From a virus (taxonomy: Duplodnaviria; Heunggongvirae; Uroviricota; Caudoviricetes), in the IMG/VR virus record IMGVR_UViG_2695420564_000009, positions 1-5,751 of that record: 5,751 bases of DNA, one strand, 5' to 3'. Below, piece after piece: positions 1 through 5,751 of this stretch (the stretch's first letter is position 1; the number at the start of each line of letters is the position of its first letter). The notes below the pieces were generated by a model. It worked only from the letters and a program-made list of their open reading frames with translations, was not told where the DNA came from and did not search any database. Made by a program: the position numbers and the translations under genes.

Positions 1-696
1 CTACCACCATCGAAGCGACCGAGCTATTCCAGCAGGCAGGCGTACTATTTGCACCAGGTAAACTTTCCAGTCGTAGATGGGGTAAACGTACCAACTGTGT
101 CCGCCTGGCGCAGCAGTAGTCCAGGGCTTATCGTCGGCAAAACGCTGTTTATTTAAACTGGCGATGGCGACAAAACGGTTATAGGACTCATCAGCGCGGA
201 TGCCGATCATCATCGCTGCCGGACGTTTTTGCGAAAACCAATCGGCAAATTCACGCACGAATTGTTCGAAGGTCATTCCGGGTTGATAAAACGAGAAAAA
301 TTCAGGATCGGTTATTGCGTCTTTTGGTGGCTGACGCACCCATTCAATACCCGGTTCCCAACATTGCCATTCTGGTTGATATTGGGAAAGCGAATTTTGC
401 GTTGTTAATGGCAGCGCTACCCAGTAAAACGCTTCAGTGACGTCGGCATATTGTTTCCGTAGAGACTGGACATAGTCGATGGTGTAGGTAAACTGCGCTT
501 CCCAATCGATGAATAAAATATAAATTTTTTTATTGAGTTTTCTCGCCAGTTCCGCGGTCAGATGGAGCATTAAACCAGAATCTTTACCGCCAGAAAAAGA
601 CACGCATACGCGAGGCAGGGTATTGAGTGTCCAGGTGATACGGTCTTGCGCTGCTTCCAGAATATTGAGCGGGAGAGGAATTTTATATATGGACAT
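1..696 (-). CDS. PAPS reductase-like PP-loop family protein (phosphoadenosine phosphosulfate reductase / YbdN-like), partial: C-terminus lies beyond the window start
   Basis: ORF on minus strand with ATG at 696..694 running off the window edge. Translation carries the PP-loop motif SGGKDS near the N-terminus (VSFSGGKDSG) and a PIYDW motif, both typical of the PAPS-reductase-like family. No strong Shine-Dalgarno seen upstream. Family call rests on motif recognition only. Confidence 0.8.
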   Translation of the reverse strand: MSIYKIPLPLNILEAAQDRITWTLNTLPRVCVSFSGGKDSGLMLHLTAELARKLNKKIYILFIDWEAQFTYTIDYVQSLRKQYADVTEAFYWVALPLTTQNSLSQYQPEWQCWEPGIEWVRQPPKDAITDPEFFSFYQPGMTFEQFVREFADWFSQKRPAAMMIGIRADESYNRFVAIASLNKQRFADDKPWTTAAPGGHSWYVYPIYDWKVYLVQIVRLPAGIARSLRWW

Positions 697-727
697 CTGA
701 ATATGCGCCCTGAACGTGATATGTCAA

Positions 728-1309
728 TCAGTGAGATGGTCTACTCATTATCCAGCGCGGATTGCTCGGCGTCAACGCCTTTGGCAGCGGGNNGATGTAC
801 NCAGNNNGNNGCTCAGGATACATGGCGTTAATTTCTTTAGTCCTGATAATTGCTTCAGTGAGGTGTCCATCAAAAGTCGTCATCTCGTCATCGCCGAGAA
901 GCCCGCTTGCATTGATGACCATATCCACGGTGATATTTTCATGTGTACCGAACCTGACAAGGACAGCAGCCCGCTTGTCTTCAGATAACTGATTAAAGTT
1001 AACAGTTTCTGTATCCGGTTCAGGGTCGACCGGAACAAAGGAAGCCGACTCCTCATTCCAGCGGTTTTCCTGCATATATTCGGAATCCCAGGAATCGAGA
1101 GCAGGGCGGGCCATGCCGGGTTTATCCTCGCAGACAAGAAATTTATAAGCACAGTCCTGGGCTTCCGGGTATTGTTCCAGAAATAACCAGCTAAATTTGG
1201 CTCTTGCCCGGCGTTCGTCGCCTGCTTCAATGGCAGTGGCCACAGGTTTAGCGCCTTCTGCTGTTGCCTGTTCGTCCGGAATGGCGGCGCAAATAAAGAC
1301 TTTACTCAT
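728..1309 (-). CDS. Hypothetical protein (193 codons as read); 3' end passes through ambiguous bases so the true C-terminus and stop are uncertain
   Basis: Minus-strand ORF with ATG at 1309..1307 preceded by GAGGT at about 7 nt spacing. The reading frame runs through N bases at 792..810, which appear as X in the translation. Sits immediately upstream of and co-directional with the PAPS-reductase-like gene. No family recognised. Confidence 0.55.
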   Translation of the reverse strand: MSKVFICAAIPDEQATAEGAKPVATAIEAGDERRARAKFSWLFLEQYPEAQDCAYKFLVCEDKPGMARPALDSWDSEYMQENRWNEESASFVPVDPEPDTETVNFNQLSEDKRAAVLVRFGTHENITVDMVINASGLLGDDEMTTFDGHLTEAIIRTKEINAMYPEXXXXYIXPLPKALTPSNPRWIMSRPSH

Positions 1310-1401
1310 TTTGTTTTACCTCATTACAGATTTAAGGGTGAACAAATCCCTGCCATTGCTGACATATAAAAATAAAGCCGGATATTTATTATGGGGCTGT
1401 T

Positions 1402-1593
1402 TTAAAGGCCTGCCGGGATTTCGTTATTGTTCATGCGAATAACTTTGTCGACAGGATAACAGTTCCCGGGAATTTTTTGCTCTGCCGCGGCAGTCATGCA
1501 TTCTTCCATTGAGTCATGTATGTCAATAACAAGATCAATCGGTTCACCAGAAACAAACAAAACAGTCAGAACGAGTACAAATGCCGTATTCAT
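1402..1593 (-). CDS. ydfD: Small secreted/membrane protein, YdfD-like (63 aa), reported for Qin prophage as a lysis protein
   Basis: Start chosen at the internal ATG 1593..1591 (MNTAFVLVLTVLFVSGEP...), which overlaps the dicB stop in an ATGA arrangement. Hydrophobic signal-peptide-like N-terminus. Length and position directly after dicB match the recalled 63-aa YdfD of prophage Qin. The ORF track gives a longer form starting at 1647, which lacks a good RBS. Confidence 0.65.
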   Translation of the reverse strand: MNTAFVLVLTVLFVSGEPIDLVIDIHDSMEECMTAAAEQKIPGNCYPVDKVIRMNNNEIPAGL

Positions 1594-1778
1594 TGCCTGC
1601 ATCCTGTTTGCATCAGACGTAAACGGGCCAGCATCGAAACAATGCATATTTTATTTAGCAGTTCCTGTTCGTGTTTTCTTTTATTAATGGCATCTTCAGT
1701 AAATATCTGATTGCTGATAGTGACACCAATTTCAAAACAACCTTCAGACGTATTAACGTTTGGTAATAACGTTTCCAT
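1590..1778 (-). CDS. dicB: Cell division inhibitor DicB (62 aa)
   Basis: ATG at 1778..1776 preceded by GAGGA at about 7-8 nt spacing. Translation METLLPNVNTSEGCFEIGVTISNQIFTEDAINKRKHEQELLNKICIVSMLARLRLMQTGCRQ closely matches the recalled E. coli DicB sequence, with the same 62-aa length. The ORF track shows a longer 97-aa form from 1883, which overlaps the DicF region and is unlikely. Confidence 0.85.
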   Translation of the reverse strand: METLLPNVNTSEGCFEIGVTISNQIFTEDAINKRKHEQELLNKICIVSMLARLRLMQTGCRQ

Positions 1779-1947
1779 TATCGCGTCCTCAACAATGAAT
1801 TTTGTGATGCGGTGCCTGGTGCCTCCAGGTGACGTTAACCAGTTAACAATTAACGCCGGATACAGAGAATCCACCCATAACACTGTTTTTGGTTTTAACT
1901 GTTCCGCGTGCGCTCAGCCGCATTCACCACATCACAAAATTCACTTT

Positions 1948-1990
1948 AAAAAGGGCGGCAGAGCAGTCACGGAGTAAAACTGATACCGCC
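1948..1990 (-). terminator. Intrinsic terminator-like hairpin plus U5 tract forming the 3' end of DicF
   Basis: On the minus strand GGCGG (1990..1986) pairs with CCGCC (1958..1954), followed directly by five T (1952..1948). Seen in sequence; read-through into dicB must still occur because dicB lies downstream. Confidence 0.6.
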
Positions 1991-2005
1991 AAACGTCACC
2001 AGAAA
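1953..2005 (-). ncRNA. dicF: DicF small regulatory RNA (53 nt mature form; U-tail extends to 1948), antisense regulator of ftsZ and other mRNAs
   Basis: Minus-strand sequence TTTCTGGTGACGTTTGGCGGTATCAGTTTTACTCCGTGACTGCTCTGCCGCCC followed by TTTTT matches the recalled DicF sequence and lies between ydfC-like and dicB as in Qin. Mature end coordinates are approximate and come from recall, not mapping. Confidence 0.8.
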
Positions 2006-2345
2006 ATTGATAACAGAGGGCGTTGCAGCGGGGTTGTCACTTAAGCGTATGGTCAACCTGACAACCCGGTGTCCTCAACGGGGAAGGAATAACCCCGCCA
2101 TACTTACCGCCGCGCCATTTCGCGGAGTGCCACAACCGGAAGCGCACGGTCGACGAAAATTTAACGACAGGCTATCTATGAACCAGCTACCTCGCCGTGC
2201 GCTTTCGCGTTATGGTCTGACTTTTCAGGGAAATATCCTTTCAGTAAACTGTCAGTGCCGGATGCTCACCCGTGTCCGGCACACGCACTCCACCTCACCC
2301 GTGGAGAACTCCTTAATTACCAACCTTAGCTTCGTTGGTTAGCTA

Positions 2346-2564
2346 TTAACGCGGGTATGTAATCATTCTGGCAATGCTTAATGCCGCTGCTTTTTCCAGA
2401 TTGGTGATATCCTGCTCCAGAGCGGACAGATTTTCAGCCTGCTTAGCTCTGGCTTCATTAGCCCATTTCAGATCCTGCGCTGCATTAATTTTCTGGCGCA
2501 TCCACTCATAAAGTTCATCATCGGTATAGTCTGGCGCGATGATGACGGGTTCTCGTTTCTGCAT
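2346..2564 (-). CDS. ydfC: Small coiled-coil hypothetical protein, YdfC-like (72 aa)
   Basis: ATG at 2564..2562 preceded by GAGGAA at about 6 nt spacing. Length (72 aa) and position third in the leftward operon, upstream of dicF, match recalled Qin ydfC. Function unknown. Confidence 0.7.
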   Translation of the reverse strand: MQKREPVIIAPDYTDDELYEWMRQKINAAQDLKWANEARAKQAENLSALEQDITNLEKAAALSIARMITYPR

Positions 2565-2593
2565 ACTGATTCCTCGCGGTGCTGTTTCGCTTA

Positions 2594-2722
2594 TCAGCCG
2601 TTAGATTTTGCCGAACTGGAAAGCACCTGTTTAAATTCGTTGAAGCTGTGAGCTTCTTCGCCTTCGGCAAGGCCTTCGAAGTATTCTTCGTAAGCCTTTT
2701 CCATGATTGTGTCAAAATCCAT
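2594..2722 (-). CDS. ydfB: Small acidic hypothetical protein, YdfB-like (42 aa): MDFDTIMEKAYEEYFEGLAEGEEAHSFNEFKQVLSSSAKSNG
   Basis: Not in the supplied ORF track (too short); found by hand translation of the minus strand. ATG at 2722..2720 with AGGTGA about 6 nt upstream, stop TGA at 2596..2594. Its start sits 1 nt after the ydfA-like stop (TGATATG). Length and position match recalled Qin ydfB. Confidence 0.6.
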   Translation of the reverse strand: MDFDTIMEKAYEEYFEGLAEGEEAHSFNEFKQVLSSSAKSNG

Positions 2723-2723
2723 A

Positions 2724-2879
2724 TCACTCACCTGAGTTTCTTTCCAGCCAGCGACGGGCACCATTTTCGGTTTTAAACGTTTTGCTTTTGGTATACGTCA
2801 TTGCGGTGAACGTACCGTCCTGGTTGGGGAACACGCCACATACCAGAGATTCGCTGTTGCCAAGATCGATAGTATCCAT
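2724..2879 (-). CDS. ydfA: Small hypothetical protein, YdfA-like (51 aa): MDTIDLGNSESLVCGVFPNQDGTFTAMTYTKSKTFKTENGARRWLERNSGE
   Basis: Preferred start ATG 2879..2877 with a GGGGAAATGAGG purine-rich RBS upstream, giving 51 aa as in recalled YdfA. An in-frame upstream ATG at 2960 with GAGG about 9 nt upstream would give 78 aa and cannot be excluded. First gene of the leftward operon downstream of the repressor. Confidence 0.65.
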   Translation of the reverse strand: MDTIDLGNSESLVCGVFPNQDGTFTAMTYTKSKTFKTENGARRWLERNSGE

Positions 2880-3067
2880 GCTGACCTCATTTCCCCTTAA
2901 CGCCGGGGTAGCGGAACAAAAACCTGCTGCATAGTTATTAAAGTTGAACCCTGCCGTCATGTTCTTACGCCTCGGGCTGGCTACTTAACCCCTGACCACT
3001 GCCTGGTAACTCGAAGTATTGCCCTGCATTCTGTGGGGCGGGGTGGGTTGGTATGAAAAGAAGGATA

Positions 3068-3100
3068 CCCATAGGTATTTAAAAAGTAAATACCTATGGG
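3068..3100. promoter_or_regulatory. Perfect 14-bp-arm inverted repeat CCCATAGGTATTTA-aaaag-TAAATACCTATGGG; candidate left operator overlapping an early-left promoter, or alternatively a terminator-like hairpin after the repressor gene
   Basis: Palindrome seen directly in sequence, 44 bp downstream of the repressor stop and upstream of the ydfA-like gene. The half-site resembles the CCTGTGGGTATT repeats in the repressor/cro intergenic region. On the minus strand TTTACC-17 nt-TAAATA overlaps it as a possible -35/-10 pair. Function is inferred. Confidence 0.45.
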
Positions 3101-3143
3101 TAAATTTTGCGGTGTCTTAACTGGTGACTAGTTGTTTGGTGAG

Positions 3144-3563
3144 CTATGATGCGTTTTGTGCTTTCTTTTTACGGATTTCTTCGTAGATCATATTGTAATA
3201 CTGTTTTTTCTCTTCAAGAGTTTTTAATAATTTATCCGCTTCACTTTCTGGCAGTTCGTCTAAGAGATCTAAAAAAATACGTTGTCGTGGCGTTAGAACC
3301 CTTGTTTCATAACTGGAGGCTGTGTTCGTTGATGATGAAACGATACCATCCATCCATCCCCGGGGTAACCCAAAGGACTCTTCGATAATCTCCACCATAT
3401 CATCAGCGATCCGTTTTTTTCCCTTTTTCCCCTCTGGGTACAACATTCTTGATACATAAGAAGGCTCGCGCCCGATCTTTCTGGCCACGTTAACCGCTTT
3501 ACCATCGCATTTCTCATCACGAATTTTGATGAGTTGCTGTCGTCTAAATTCATATTTGTCCAT
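3144..3563 (-). CDS. Prophage CI-type repressor (139 aa) with predicted helix-turn-helix, DicA/RacR-like role
   Basis: Minus-strand ORF diverging from the cro-like gene. HTH-like segment GKAVNVARKIGREPSYVSRML. No Shine-Dalgarno before the ATG, and a TATTAT -10-like hexamer sits 6 nt upstream, consistent with a leaderless transcript as for lambda cI from PRM. Role assigned by position and architecture. Confidence 0.75.
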   Translation of the reverse strand: MDKYEFRRQQLIKIRDEKCDGKAVNVARKIGREPSYVSRMLYPEGKKGKKRIADDMVEIIEESFGLPRGWMDGIVSSSTNTASSYETRVLTPRQRIFLDLLDELPESEADKLLKTLEEKKQYYNMIYEEIRKKKAQNAS

Positions 3564-3663
3564 AGGTAAATAATAGATGCGATTACCGCAAGGTAAACAA
3601 CCTGTGGGTATTGACTTTTGTTTACCTGTGGGTATTCTTTGCTGTGTTTACTAAGGAGTAGCT
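3564..3663. promoter_or_regulatory. Divergent promoter/operator region between the repressor and the cro-like gene (OR-like)
   Basis: Two direct copies of CCTGTGGGTATT (3601..3612 and 3625..3636), a related CCATAGGTAAAT at 3560..3571 overlapping the repressor start, and GTAAACA/TGTTTAC inverted elements. Plus-strand TTGACT (3611..3616) and TATTCT (3633..3638) with 16-nt spacing form a plausible rightward promoter. AAGGAG at 3653..3658 is the RBS for the cro-like gene. Confidence 0.55.
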
Positions 3664-3945
3664 ATGAAAGAATTAAGAATATTTCTCAATTCTCTTTCGT
3701 CAGATGAACAGCGTATGTTTGCATGCGAGTGTGGTACCAGCATCGGTTATCTAAGAAAGGCATTGAGTAAAGGTCAAGTGTTAGGGGCATCGTTATGTGT
3801 CCTTATTGAGCGAGCCAGTAATGGTGAAGTTACACGTCAGCAACTAAGGCCTTTTGATTGGATGAATATTTGGCCCGAGCTGGAAGATACCAAAACGTTA
3901 ACACAACCACTTTCTAGGAGCTTGATTCATGAAAATCAAGCATGA
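3664..3945 (+). CDS. ydaS: Cro-like HTH regulator, YdaS family (93 aa)
   Basis: Strong RBS AAGGAG 5 nt before ATG 3664. First rightward gene diverging from the repressor. Small HTH-type protein immediately followed by, and overlapping by 17 nt, a YdaT-like gene, as in the Rac prophage ydaS-ydaT arrangement. Symbol assigned by synteny and family resemblance. Confidence 0.7.
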   Translation: MKELRIFLNSLSSDEQRMFACECGTSIGYLRKALSKGQVLGASLCVLIERASNGEVTRQQLRPFDWMNIWPELEDTKTLTQPLSRSLIHENQA

Positions 3946-4354
3946 ACACATCCGCATGGCGATGAATGTCTGGGCGCATCCGGACGGCGAAAAAGTGCCG
4001 GCTGCGAAAATTACCAAAGCGTATTTCGAGCTGGGAATGACGTTCCCGGAACTGTATGACGACAGCCATCCGGAAGCCCTGGCCCGTAATACCCAGAAAA
4101 TTTTCCGTTGGCTGGATAAAGACACCCCTGATGCTGTTGAAAAAATGCAGGCTCTGTTACCGGCGATCGAAAAGGCGATGCCGCCTTTGCTGGTGGCCCG
4201 TATGCGCAGCCACAGTTCTGAATATTACCGTGAGATCGTCGAACGGAGGGATCGGCTGGTGAAGGATGTCGATGATTTTGTTGCGTCAGCGGTTGTTTTG
4301 TATGACCAGATGAATCGCGGCGGCCCGGCAGGGAATGCTGTGGTGATGCACTAA
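3929..4354 (+). CDS. ydaT: YdaT-family protein (CII-like regulator, historically annotated as toxin YdaT), 141 aa
   Basis: RBS AGGAG 8 nt before ATG 3929. N-terminus MKIKHEHI and length about 140 aa match the recalled YdaT family. Position after the cro-like gene matches lambda cII and Rac ydaT. Confidence 0.75.
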   Translation: MKIKHEHIRMAMNVWAHPDGEKVPAAKITKAYFELGMTFPELYDDSHPEALARNTQKIFRWLDKDTPDAVEKMQALLPAIEKAMPPLLVARMRSHSSEYYREIVERRDRLVKDVDDFVASAVVLYDQMNRGGPAGNAVVMH

Positions 4355-4376
4355 AAGCACGGTGTTCGGGGGTTTT

Positions 4377-5339
4377 ATGAGCAGCAAGCTTCATGGTCTT
4401 GTCTGGGAAGGGTGCGCCTTCACCGGCATGATCTTATCCAGGGTGGCGGTTATGGCCCGTCTTGCAGACTACAGCAATGACGAGGGCGTGTCATGGCCTG
4501 CCATTGAAACTATCCGGCGTCAGATCGGTGCAAGAAGTGAATCCACAGTGAAATCGGCTATTGCAGAACTGGCGAAAGAGGGCTGGCTGACGAAGGAAGA
4601 GCGTAAGGTCGGTGGGCGTAATGTAAGCAATATCTATCGGCTTAATGTGGAAAAACTCGAAGCAGCTGCGGCGGCGGCGCGTGAGTCATATAAACCGAAA
4701 AGAAAAATTAGCCCGGCAAAAAATGACCCGTTAACAGTTGACCCGTCAAATATTGACCCCTCAACGGTTGACCCGTCAAATTTTGATGGATCAACTGTTG
4801 ATAAAAAACTGCCGATTAGGGGGCCGATGATTGACCCCGATCCGTCAGTATTAAAACCTGATCCGTCAGATAAAAGATCTTCTTGTCCGGACGCTTCGCA
4901 ACCGGACCCGCAGACGGCTGAACAGGATTTTTTAACCCGACACCCTGACGCGGTTGTGTTCAGTGCGAAAAAACGCCAGTGGGGAAGTCAGGAAGATTTG
5001 GTGTGCGCACAGTGGATCTGGGGACGAATCGTGAGTCTTTACGAGCAGGCGGCCAGCTATGATGGCGAGATCACTAGACCGAAAGAACCCAACTGGACAG
5101 CATGGGCCAATGACGTTCGCACAATGCGGATGCTGGATGGCAGAACTCACAGACAAATTTGTGAAATGTTTGGGCGTCTCCAGCGGGATTCGTTCTGGGT
5201 AAAAAACATCATGAGTCCGGCAAAACTCCGGGAAAAATGGGATGAACTGGTTATCCGCCTGGGGCGTTCGCCTGCGCAGCGTTGCGTGAATCACATTTCT
5301 GAACCGGACACTGAAATTCCGCCGGGCTTCAGGGGGTAA
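4377..5339 (+). CDS. Phage replication initiation protein (lambda O-like replisome organiser) with N-terminal winged-HTH-like region, DPS-rich linker and conserved phage C-terminal domain
   Basis: Long ORF after the ydaT-like gene. Preferred start ATG 4377 with GGGGG 4 nt upstream; the ORF track starts at GTG 4362. The linker-coding region contains tandem iteron-like repeats, as in lambda O. The C-terminal part resembles the conserved phage C-terminal domain of lambdoid replication proteins (recalled, not searched). Confidence 0.8.
   Translation: MSSKLHGLVWEGCAFTGMILSRVAVMARLADYSNDEGVSWPAIETIRRQIGARSESTVKSAIAELAKEGWLTKEERKVGGRNVSNIYRLNVEKLEAAAAAARESYKPKRKISPAKNDPLTVDPSNIDPSTVDPSNFDGSTVDKKLPIRGPMIDPDPSVLKPDPSDKRSSCPDASQPDPQTAEQDFLTRHPDAVVFSAKKRQWGSQEDLVCAQWIWGRIVSLYEQAASYDGEITRPKEPNWTAWANDVRTMRMLDGRTHRQICEMFGRLQRDSFWVKNIMSPAKLREKWDELVIRLGRSPAQRCVNHISEPDTEIPPGFRG
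4723..4812. repeat. Iteron-like array: six 15-bp-periodic units of form TTGACCCGTCAA (internally palindromic), ending in an A-rich unit; candidate replication origin inside the rep gene
   Basis: Seen directly: ATGACCCGTTAACAG, TTGACCCGTCAAATA, TTGACCCCTCAACGG, TTGACCCGTCAAATT, TTGATGGATCAACTG, TTGATAAAAAACTGC from 4723 in 15-bp register. Downstream are two GATCCGTCAG copies (4839, 4860) and four GATC sites within about 90 bp. Origin function inferred by analogy with ori-lambda lying within O. Confidence 0.6.
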
Positions 5340-5379
5340 GTGTTAATTTCTGGTCATGAGGTAATTTTCAGGAGGGCTT

Positions 5380-5751
5380 GTGGCAAAAGTTTTTACACAA
5401 GAAGAGCGGGAAAAAATTAAAGGGCAGGTTGTTGAACTCGTACGCCAGAGTGGGCGCGAGACGTTACGACAACTGGAAACTAAAACTGGGGCAACAAGAT
5501 ATCTGATGAGCGTTCTCGCAAGAGAGCTGGTTGCCAGCGGCGATGTATACAACTCCGGCTACGGGTTATTCCCCTCTGAACAGGCGCGTAAGGACTGGCA
5601 AAACGCCCGCAAAAAACTCTCGAGGGCAAAGGTGAAGAAACCTGCTGTGGTTGATCCGGACCTTATCTGGTCATCACCTGACGGAGAAATACGTCGCTAC
5701 GACAGTCGCCTAAACATAATCTGTCGCGAGTGCCGGAAGAGTGAAGCCTGA
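5380..5751 (+). CDS. Hypothetical protein (123 aa), possible small DNA-binding or replication-associated protein
   Basis: GTG start at 5380 preceded by AGGAGG (5370..5375) at 4 nt spacing; stop TGA at 5749..5751. Follows the replication initiator in the same operon. No family recognised; a helix-turn-helix-like segment (RETLRQLETKTGATRYLMSVLAREL) is only suggestive. Confidence 0.6.
   Translation: MAKVFTQEEREKIKGQVVELVRQSGRETLRQLETKTGATRYLMSVLARELVASGDVYNSGYGLFPSEQARKDWQNARKKLSRAKVKKPAVVDPDLIWSSPDGEIRRYDSRLNIICRECRKSEA

Follow-up and report, generated by a model that had tools for sequence, protein, structure and literature searches.

A Qin-type dicF–dicB–ydfD cassette in the early-left operon of a lambdoid prophage from a probable Escherichia albertii host

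The DNA analysed here, a stretch of 5,751 nucleotides (nt) covering positions 1 to 5,751 of the IMG/VR virus record IMGVR_UViG_2695420564_000009 (Caudoviricetes) and referred to below as the window, carries on its minus strand a small RNA (sRNA) gene, dicF, followed by the division-inhibitor gene dicB and a homologue of the lysis gene ydfD. The segment 1402..2005 is almost certainly the core of a Qin-type dicBF operon with the order ydfA-ydfB-ydfC-dicF-dicB-ydfD-(exonuclease), located in the early-left (PL-like) operon of a lambdoid prophage whose host was probably Escherichia albertii. An earlier note, made from the letters of the sequence alone, had proposed a complete DicF, DicB and YdfD-like module at this place. 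The cassette was confirmed as a standard, well-characterised prophage module, which is real, intact and already known. Its elements are as follows.

1953..2005, minus strand: dicF, the 53-nt sRNA DicF (RF00039 match; identical to K-12 b1574; hairpin in the minimum-energy fold)
1948..1952, minus strand: U5 tail of the DicF intrinsic terminator (read from the sequence; identical to K-12)
1779..1947, minus strand: structured dicF–dicB spacer, the dicB leader (174 nt when the U5 tail is included, 1779..1952; folding and covariation)
1590..1778, minus strand: dicB, division inhibitor of 62 amino acids (aa) (PF05358, NF049927; likeness to K-12)
1402..1593, minus strand: ydfD, 63-aa DUF1482 / lysis-protein homologue (PF07358, phrog_1092; likeness to K-12)

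DicF was identified with a covariance-model scan (cmscan) in which all Rfam families were compared with both strands of the whole window at permissive thresholds (E up to 1). The family RF00039 was matched at 2004..1953 on the minus strand with 76.7 bits against a gathering score of 48 (E 3.3e-16) over the full model (positions 1-52 of 52), and the GC-rich terminal hairpin and the U tract were both present. The segment 2005..1953 is identical to dicF (b1574) of E. coli K-12 MG1655 at 53 of 53 bases. Its GGCGGUA/UGCCGCC hairpin belongs to the minimum-energy fold (-15.9 kcal/mol, z -2.3), and U5 follows the hairpin directly at 1952..1948, as in K-12. The span 1948..2005 given for DicF in the earlier note does contain the element, but the annotated 53 nt are 1953..2005 and the remaining five positions are the U tail. 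The Rfam alignment proposed there as a check gave a match well over the threshold, and the seed region carries no substitutions. It has been reported that DicF pairs directly with the mRNAs of ftsZ, pykA and xylR, using its 5' part for xylR and its 3' part for ftsZ and pykA (PMC5069750); with the regions defined in that way, both the 5' and the 3' pairing regions of the window RNA match the functional K-12 RNA. The mRNA of the mannose transporter gene manX is a further target (PMC10448788). Termination produces the 3' end of the 53-nt form and RNase III produces a 72-nt form, and the locus is widespread in E. coli, with several copies in O157:H7 (PMC5069750).

The dicB gene was recognised just as clearly. 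The protein encoded from an ATG start at 1778..1590 matched Pfam PF05358 with 132.5 bits (cut-off 27; E 4.3e-39), residues 1-62 covering the 62-position profile, and the NCBIfam DicB model NF049927 with 132.6 bits (cut-off 100). It is identical to K-12 DicB at 54 of 62 residues (87%), and exactly this allele was found on 756 contigs. The alignment of 1590..1778 to DicB, also suggested in the earlier note, thus agrees with its reading. The YdfD-like protein matched PF07358 (DUF1482) over residues 4-61 with 79.7 bits (cut-off 25; E 1.4e-22) and phrog_1092 with 116.7 bits; 46 of its 63 residues (73%) are shared with K-12 YdfD. The exact YdfD allele occurs in two assemblies only, and it is one residue (F12L) away from an allele common in E. 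albertii and E. coli. The junction of the two genes reads GCAGGCAATGAATACG, in which the TGA of dicB and the ATG of ydfD share the bases ATGA, as had been proposed. Ribosome-binding sites were found 7 nt upstream of the dicB ATG (GAGGA) and 8 nt upstream of the ydfD ATG (AGGA), and neither frameshifts nor internal stops nor ambiguous bases were found within 1402..2005, which bears out the earlier description of an intact module with good ribosome-binding sites.

The functions named in the earlier note for DicF, DicB and YdfD have all been described for the alleles of K-12. For DicB, binding to MinC and action through ZipA have been reported (PMC6832061). Cells that express the dicBF operon are about 100-fold resistant to lambda and other phages that depend on ManYZ, and they cannot grow on mannose; the DicB-MinC interaction is required in both cases, and DicB prevents lambda DNA from entering by way of ManYZ (PMC6832061). 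YdfD causes lysis and binds IspG through what is reported to be its N-terminal half; the cells can be rescued by extra ispG or by its product, and the lysis is counteracted by DicB (PMC8835842). From the 87% identity to the K-12 protein, the DicB of the window would be expected to cause a MinC/ZipA-dependent division block and ManYZ inhibition, and from the 73% identity to the tested protein its YdfD would be expected to cause IspG-linked lysis. The proposal that the module is a functional superinfection-exclusion cassette is supported with one qualification: exclusion is published for the K-12 operon, but it was shown with ectopic operon expression only, so it does not amount to constitutive exclusion by a repressed prophage.

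For YdfD it was also considered that the window allele could be a DUF1482 member with another activity than K-12 YdfD, and not a lysis protein. With only 46 of 63 residues identical, the differences from K-12 lie mostly in residues 12-30 and 53-57, IspG binding was reported for the N-terminal half (PMC8835842), and no NCBIfam model names the protein. However, the DUF1482 and phrog_1092 matches are full-length, the protein has the same length and the same ATGA coupling to dicB as in K-12, and both Cys residues and the C-terminal IPAGL motif are conserved. A different activity is quite unlikely on this evidence.

Beyond the three elements, the whole segment 811..2917 was collinear with the K-12 Qin operon in a blastn comparison, with 89.4% identity overall. 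The Qin-type order ydfA-ydfB-ydfC-dicF-dicB-ydfD-ydfE was found on one strand, downstream of an immunity region, and the gene order, the spacings and the dicB/ydfD overlap are the same as in K-12 Qin. The further parts of the operon are the following.

2724..2960, minus strand: ydfA (DUF1391; PF07151, 94.5 bits); 78-aa open reading frame (ORF) from 2960, K-12-length 51-aa form from 2879
2594..2722, minus strand: ydfB, 42 aa (95.3% nt identity to K-12; phrog_2061; called as a gene in the source contig)
2346..2564, minus strand: ydfC, 72 aa (protein identical to K-12 YdfC, 72/72; phrog_1744)
2006..2345, minus strand: ydfC–dicF spacer of 340 nt, the 5' part of the DicF precursor (331/340 to K-12, 97.4%; fold z -2.85)
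811..1309, minus strand: 5' part of a ydfE-like exonuclease gene, cut at a cluster of Ns (positions 1-168 of the 823-position profile phrog_2082; 76% to K-12 ydfE)

The nucleotide identity to K-12 changes stepwise along the operon. It is 95-99% in ydfA, ydfB and ydfC (95.5% for ydfA over 2724..2879), 97.4% in the ydfC–dicF spacer, 100% in dicF and 99.4% in the dicF–dicB spacer, and then falls to 88.9% in dicB, 76.4% in ydfD and 76.1% in ydfE. Because the identity drops in this way from 95-100% to 89% and then to 76%, a recombination joint was placed near the dicB start codon. K-12 Qin and the window thus share DicF (53/53), the spacers (97-99%) and YdfC (72/72 aa), whereas the dicB-ydfD-exonuclease part of the window comes from a more divergent lineage (DicB 87%, YdfD 73%) and its host is probably E. 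albertii. In K-12 the operon is transcribed from dicBp upstream of ydfA, which is repressed by DicA, no internal promoter was found, and DicF is made by RNase III processing (a 190-nt species) and RNase E processing (the 53-nt species) (PMC10448788). Carried over by homology, the end that RNase III makes in the 190-nt species would lie near 2142 in the window, and only 2 positions differ from K-12 in the 137 nt upstream of DicF that make up the rest of this precursor. A promoter of its own for dicB was considered and rejected: the promoter scan gave no minus-strand promoter-like site in 1779..2345, and the same holds for K-12 (PMC10448788). A put-like or other known cis-acting RNA in the ydfC–dicF spacer was likewise rejected, as the permissive Rfam scan gave only DicF, a sub-threshold match to STnc100 and a spurious match to mir-250. 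The 193-aa ORF at 728..1309 was rejected as a complete YdfE-like gene, since it corresponds to the first 168 residues of an exonuclease of about 820 aa (823-position profile); it continues into the N cluster and into antisense sequence from upstream of ybdN, and is chimeric or truncated. Intact relatives carry an exonuclease gene of about 2.4 kb after ydfD.

The end of this ORF leads to the quality of the source contig. The window is an exact match to contig CCBU01000012.1 of assembly GCA_000940615.1, and this contig is a patchwork of unlinked core-gene fragments (ybdN-like, pgk, malP, a cbpA/M-like pair and narJ-like pieces), which match E. coli at 80-90% only and at scattered loci, with short N clusters near the joints. 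The only Ns in the window are at 792..810, at the joint between the prophage exonuclease gene and the ybdN fragment, and the ybdN homology ends again at 61/62, which gives a second breakpoint. Left of about 811 the window is a different genomic piece and not prophage. Between these joints, 62..654 matches the E. albertii type strain at 99.3% identity in its ybdN region but E. coli ybdN at about 83% only; therefore the host is probably E. albertii. A PAPS-reductase-like ORF at 1..696 was tried as ibrA-like prophage cargo and was rejected for the same reason, the fragment being chromosomal and joined by assembly; it is, like 728..1309, truncated or chimeric. With such a contig, it had to be asked whether the local arrangement is itself an assembly artefact, the cassette not lying in one genome. 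The patchwork of unlinked core genes, the N clusters near the joints and the two joints at 792..810 and near 61/62 speak for it. However, 811..5751 contains no Ns and no break in homology, so the cassette can be trusted. Moreover, 1016..5747 is collinear at 96.2% identity with prophages of ST131 and other finished E. coli genomes, 811..2917 is collinear with K-12, and a second assembly has the same 1..3201 with one mismatch. An artefact is very improbable.

The control of the operon was then examined in the immunity region, whose features are listed here together with the genes that follow it.

3062..3102, minus strand: OL/PL-like control region, two inverted operator copies over a candidate promoter
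3144..3563, minus strand: prophage repressor, 139 aa (phrog_5736, 234 bits; no Pfam match)
3570..3638: OR-like region, two operator copies with PR-like (plus strand) and PRM-like (minus strand) promoters
3664..3945: Cro-like protein (Pfam/phrog profile searches)
3929..4354: CII/YdaT-like protein (Pfam/phrog profile searches)
4362..5339: O-like replication protein (Pfam/phrog profile searches)
5380..5751: Ren-like protein (Pfam/phrog profile searches)

Unlike Qin, the window does not have DicA and DicC at this place; another repressor with operators of its own was found instead. DicA was rejected as the repressor because the NCBIfam DicA model gave 24.5 bits against a cut-off of 101 and the BLASTP likeness was limited to residues 89-134 (46 aa; 33% identity, E 2e-7). 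The Cro-like protein gave E 0.051 against DicC and was taken as unrelated. The likeness at the C-terminal end suggests that a shared oligomerisation module is joined to a different DNA-binding head in the 139-aa repressor. The repressor is intact, and its exact sequence was found on at least 1000 contigs. Its length of 139 aa and the lack of a Pfam match give no hint of a self-cleaving peptidase domain; an antirepressor may therefore be needed for induction. Since the repressor is not DicA, its operators differ from those of Qin. The 12-mer TACCCAYAGGTA, with one mismatch allowed, occurs four times in the window against 0.02 expected, and the four copies of this near-palindromic sequence, TACCYAYRGGTA, are candidate operators of the repressor. 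Two of them (3599..3610 and 3623..3634) lie between the repressor and cro-like genes. These copies overlap promoters in both directions, one PR-like on the plus strand (3611..3638; TTGACT-16 nt-TATTCT) and one PRM-like on the minus strand (3597..3570). The other two (3066..3077 and 3091..3102) make up a perfect inverted repeat of 16 nt (3066..3102) in the interval from the repressor stop to ydfA, where a candidate PL promoter on the minus strand was read by eye as TTTACT (3090-3085), a 17-nt spacer and TATCCT (3067-3062). At both the PL-like and the PR-like promoter, an operator overlaps the -10 hexamer by 2 nt. The earlier statement that the cassette is under repressor control is supported by these operator copies over PR/PRM-like and PL-like promoters, which were found in silico, though the repressor is not DicA.

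Several points weigh against the placement and function proposed here. The candidate PL promoter fits the consensus at 8 of 12 positions, which is below the scan threshold, so that the scan did not list it, and the palindrome at 3066..3102 is also listed as terminator-like for the repressor transcript; the two roles of the palindrome, operator and terminator, are not mutually exclusive. Compared with the K-12 proteins that were tested, DicB has 8 differences in 62 residues and YdfD 17 in 63, and their activities are deduced from homology. The host genes ftsZ, minC, manYZ and ispG lie outside the window, and a patchwork contig cannot show the completeness of the prophage or its genomic site. 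For the identification of the three elements themselves, nothing was found that contradicts it.

Within the O-like replication gene, 15-nt iteron-like repeats of the TGACCCGTC type and a 33-nt inverted repeat were observed at 4703..4799 on the plus strand; they are probably the phage origin. These repeats also explain the mir-250 match at 4733..4799, which was rejected as an RNA.

The cassette is common among the relatives of the window. Its 1.1-kb core matched 4751 of 5426 complete E. coli genomes (about 88%), with a median of 2 places and a maximum of 10 per genome, and the features under these matches are annotated as dicB, ydfC and DUF1482. The ST131 prophages have the same repressor / Cro / YdaT-like / O-like module as the window. 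In an O157:H7 copy DicF is identical and the leader the same, and the cassette is also carried by isolated lambdoid and Stx phages, Tritos and mEp460 among them. In these prophages of pathogenic E. coli and isolated phages, a full exonuclease gene of about 2.4 kb follows ydfD, whereas in the window this gene is cut at the assembly joint. Some close relatives have an insertion of about 0.6 kb between ydfC and dicF that is absent from the window. As a side observation, the closest E. coli relatives of the dicB/ydfD allele (locus 5479..6680) have such an insert between ydfC and dicB, a stretch in which dicF also lies, and it holds two hypothetical ORFs. One closest E. coli relative has a frameshifted DUF1482 gene; that of the window is not frameshifted.

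Such abundance could also be that of a silent relic, that is, a cassette which is intact but never expressed at a meaningful level in the host and which persists by hitch-hiking and frequent prophage recombination. In line with this, Qin of K-12 is cryptic and its operon tightly repressed (PMC10448788), genomes hold up to 10 copies, a closest relative has the frameshift just mentioned, and the identity to K-12 (97-100% to the dicB start, then 89% and 76%) points to mosaic recombination and not to uniform selection. On the other hand, the ORFs, the sRNA, the repressor and the operators of the window are all intact, and the noncoding spacers are its best conserved parts. In K-12, furthermore, DicF accumulates in stationary phase and the promoter is derepressed spontaneously or by stress (PMC10448788). 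We consider a silent relic unlikely, and the preferred reading is an operon that would be expressed when repression lapses.

The best conserved of these noncoding parts next to DicF is the dicF–dicB spacer, which is identical to K-12 at 173 of 174 positions (1779..1952). The 177-nt segment 1779..1955 has a minimum free energy of -68 kcal/mol, with a z of -5.25 against shuffled controls. A closing stem of about 21 base pairs encloses three to four hairpins; it extends from about 6 nt past the U tail to immediately upstream of the Shine-Dalgarno sequence of dicB, a position that fits the published RNase III cut yielding the 72-nt DicF. When 18 distinct dicB/kilR leaders were compared by RNAalifold, 49 consensus pairs were obtained, 5 of them with compensatory double changes.

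The spacer resembles two other RNAs. The first is STnc100 (RF02076), a prophage sRNA related to PasD, one copy of which is reported downstream of stx2 (PMC12370729). Its whole model (positions 1-206) aligns to the spacer, with the hairpin CACCNGGAGGCACCNGGCACC common to both, but the score is 38.7 bits against a gathering score of 47, and the spacers of K-12 (34.4 bits) and O157:H7 (39.7 bits) are below it as well. The spacer thus resembles STnc100 but is not counted as a member of the family. STnc100 proper has a G-C pair where the spacer hairpin has U-A. A scan of viral contigs for the CACCNGGAGGCACCNGGCACC hairpin gave at least 120 loci; the 24 copies of the U/A form lie beside dicB in 13 cases, beside kilR in 8 and beside neither in 3, whereas the 108 copies of the G/C form, which are STnc100 proper, lie beside neither gene. 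The second is the leader of kilR in Rac-type prophages, which is homologous to the spacer (80% identical over 167 nt) and stands directly upstream of kilR, another FtsZ-directed division inhibitor. As in the dicB region, a hairpin and a U tract precede this leader. The Rac-type immunity genes agree with those of the window in length (139, 93 and 141 aa) and in how they are annotated, the likeness being by these features alone. The Rac-type arrangement differs in having kilR instead of dicB, and its upstream hairpin RNA scores 39.1 bits against the DicF threshold of 48 and has another 5' region. In the Rac-type prophage of E. coli PD4, the leader was observed at locus 3008..3217 (minus strand) with a DicF-like hairpin and U tract at 3162..3217 (minus strand); this hairpin may be a distinct sRNA or merely a terminator.

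These comparisons support the view that division-inhibitor genes of prophages are preceded by a conserved, structured leader. It could further be proposed, rather doubtfully at present, that the 174-nt spacer is a conserved cis-acting RNA module which gates toxic division-inhibitor genes in lambdoid early-left operons. The long closing stem, the covarying pairs of the internal hairpins, the occurrence of the leader before both dicB and kilR and its distant relationship to the STnc100/PasD family speak for this. In that case, an RNase III cut in the closing stem, together with pairing of the DicF 3' end with the dicB Shine-Dalgarno sequence, could couple the formation of the DicF 3' end to the translation of DicB and YdfD. 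The excised leader itself could also act as an sRNA.

Taken with the K-12 literature, the following course of events is proposed for the operon. Judging from the operator and promoter sequences, the 139-aa repressor would bind the four operators and silence the PL-like promoter that lies upstream of ydfA. A polycistronic RNA would be made once repression lapses. RNase III and then RNase E would cut the conserved leader to give the DicF 5' end, as has been shown in K-12 and is expected here from the near-identity, and termination at the GGCGG/CCGCC-U5 hairpin would give the 3' end of the 53-nt DicF. Together with Hfq, DicF would pair with the ftsZ, pykA, xylR and manX mRNAs and lower their translation. 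As dicB and ydfD are downstream of the DicF terminator, their expression needs read-through; the read-through transcripts would carry the stable structured leader, then dicB and ydfD, translationally coupled via the ATGA overlap. DicB would bind MinC and, via ZipA, dissolve Z rings, and it would also shut ManYZ, with neither sugar uptake nor lambda-type DNA entry as the outcome. YdfD would bind IspG and lyse dividing cells, with DicB counteracting the lysis. The steps from RNA processing through YdfD lysis have been published for the K-12 alleles and are carried over to the window by homology.

The dicBF cassette is among the best-studied modules of cryptic prophages and is nearly universal in E. 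coli, and its presence here has little weight as a discovery. Its practical use lies in annotation, where it adds an intact copy from a probable E. albertii and identifies the window as the early-left arm of a lambdoid prophage. The comparison with Qin shows that the cassette travels with interchangeable immunity regions. In K-12 the antirepressor Rem derepresses the operon and causes filamentation that depends on DicF and DicB (PMC10448788); signals such as Rem that derepress Qin need not apply here. If the gating idea is true, novelty would be confined to the gating role and the family relationship, the RNase III cut giving the 72-nt DicF being already published. The leader common to dicB and kilR is a modest lead on how prophages restrain their division inhibitors.

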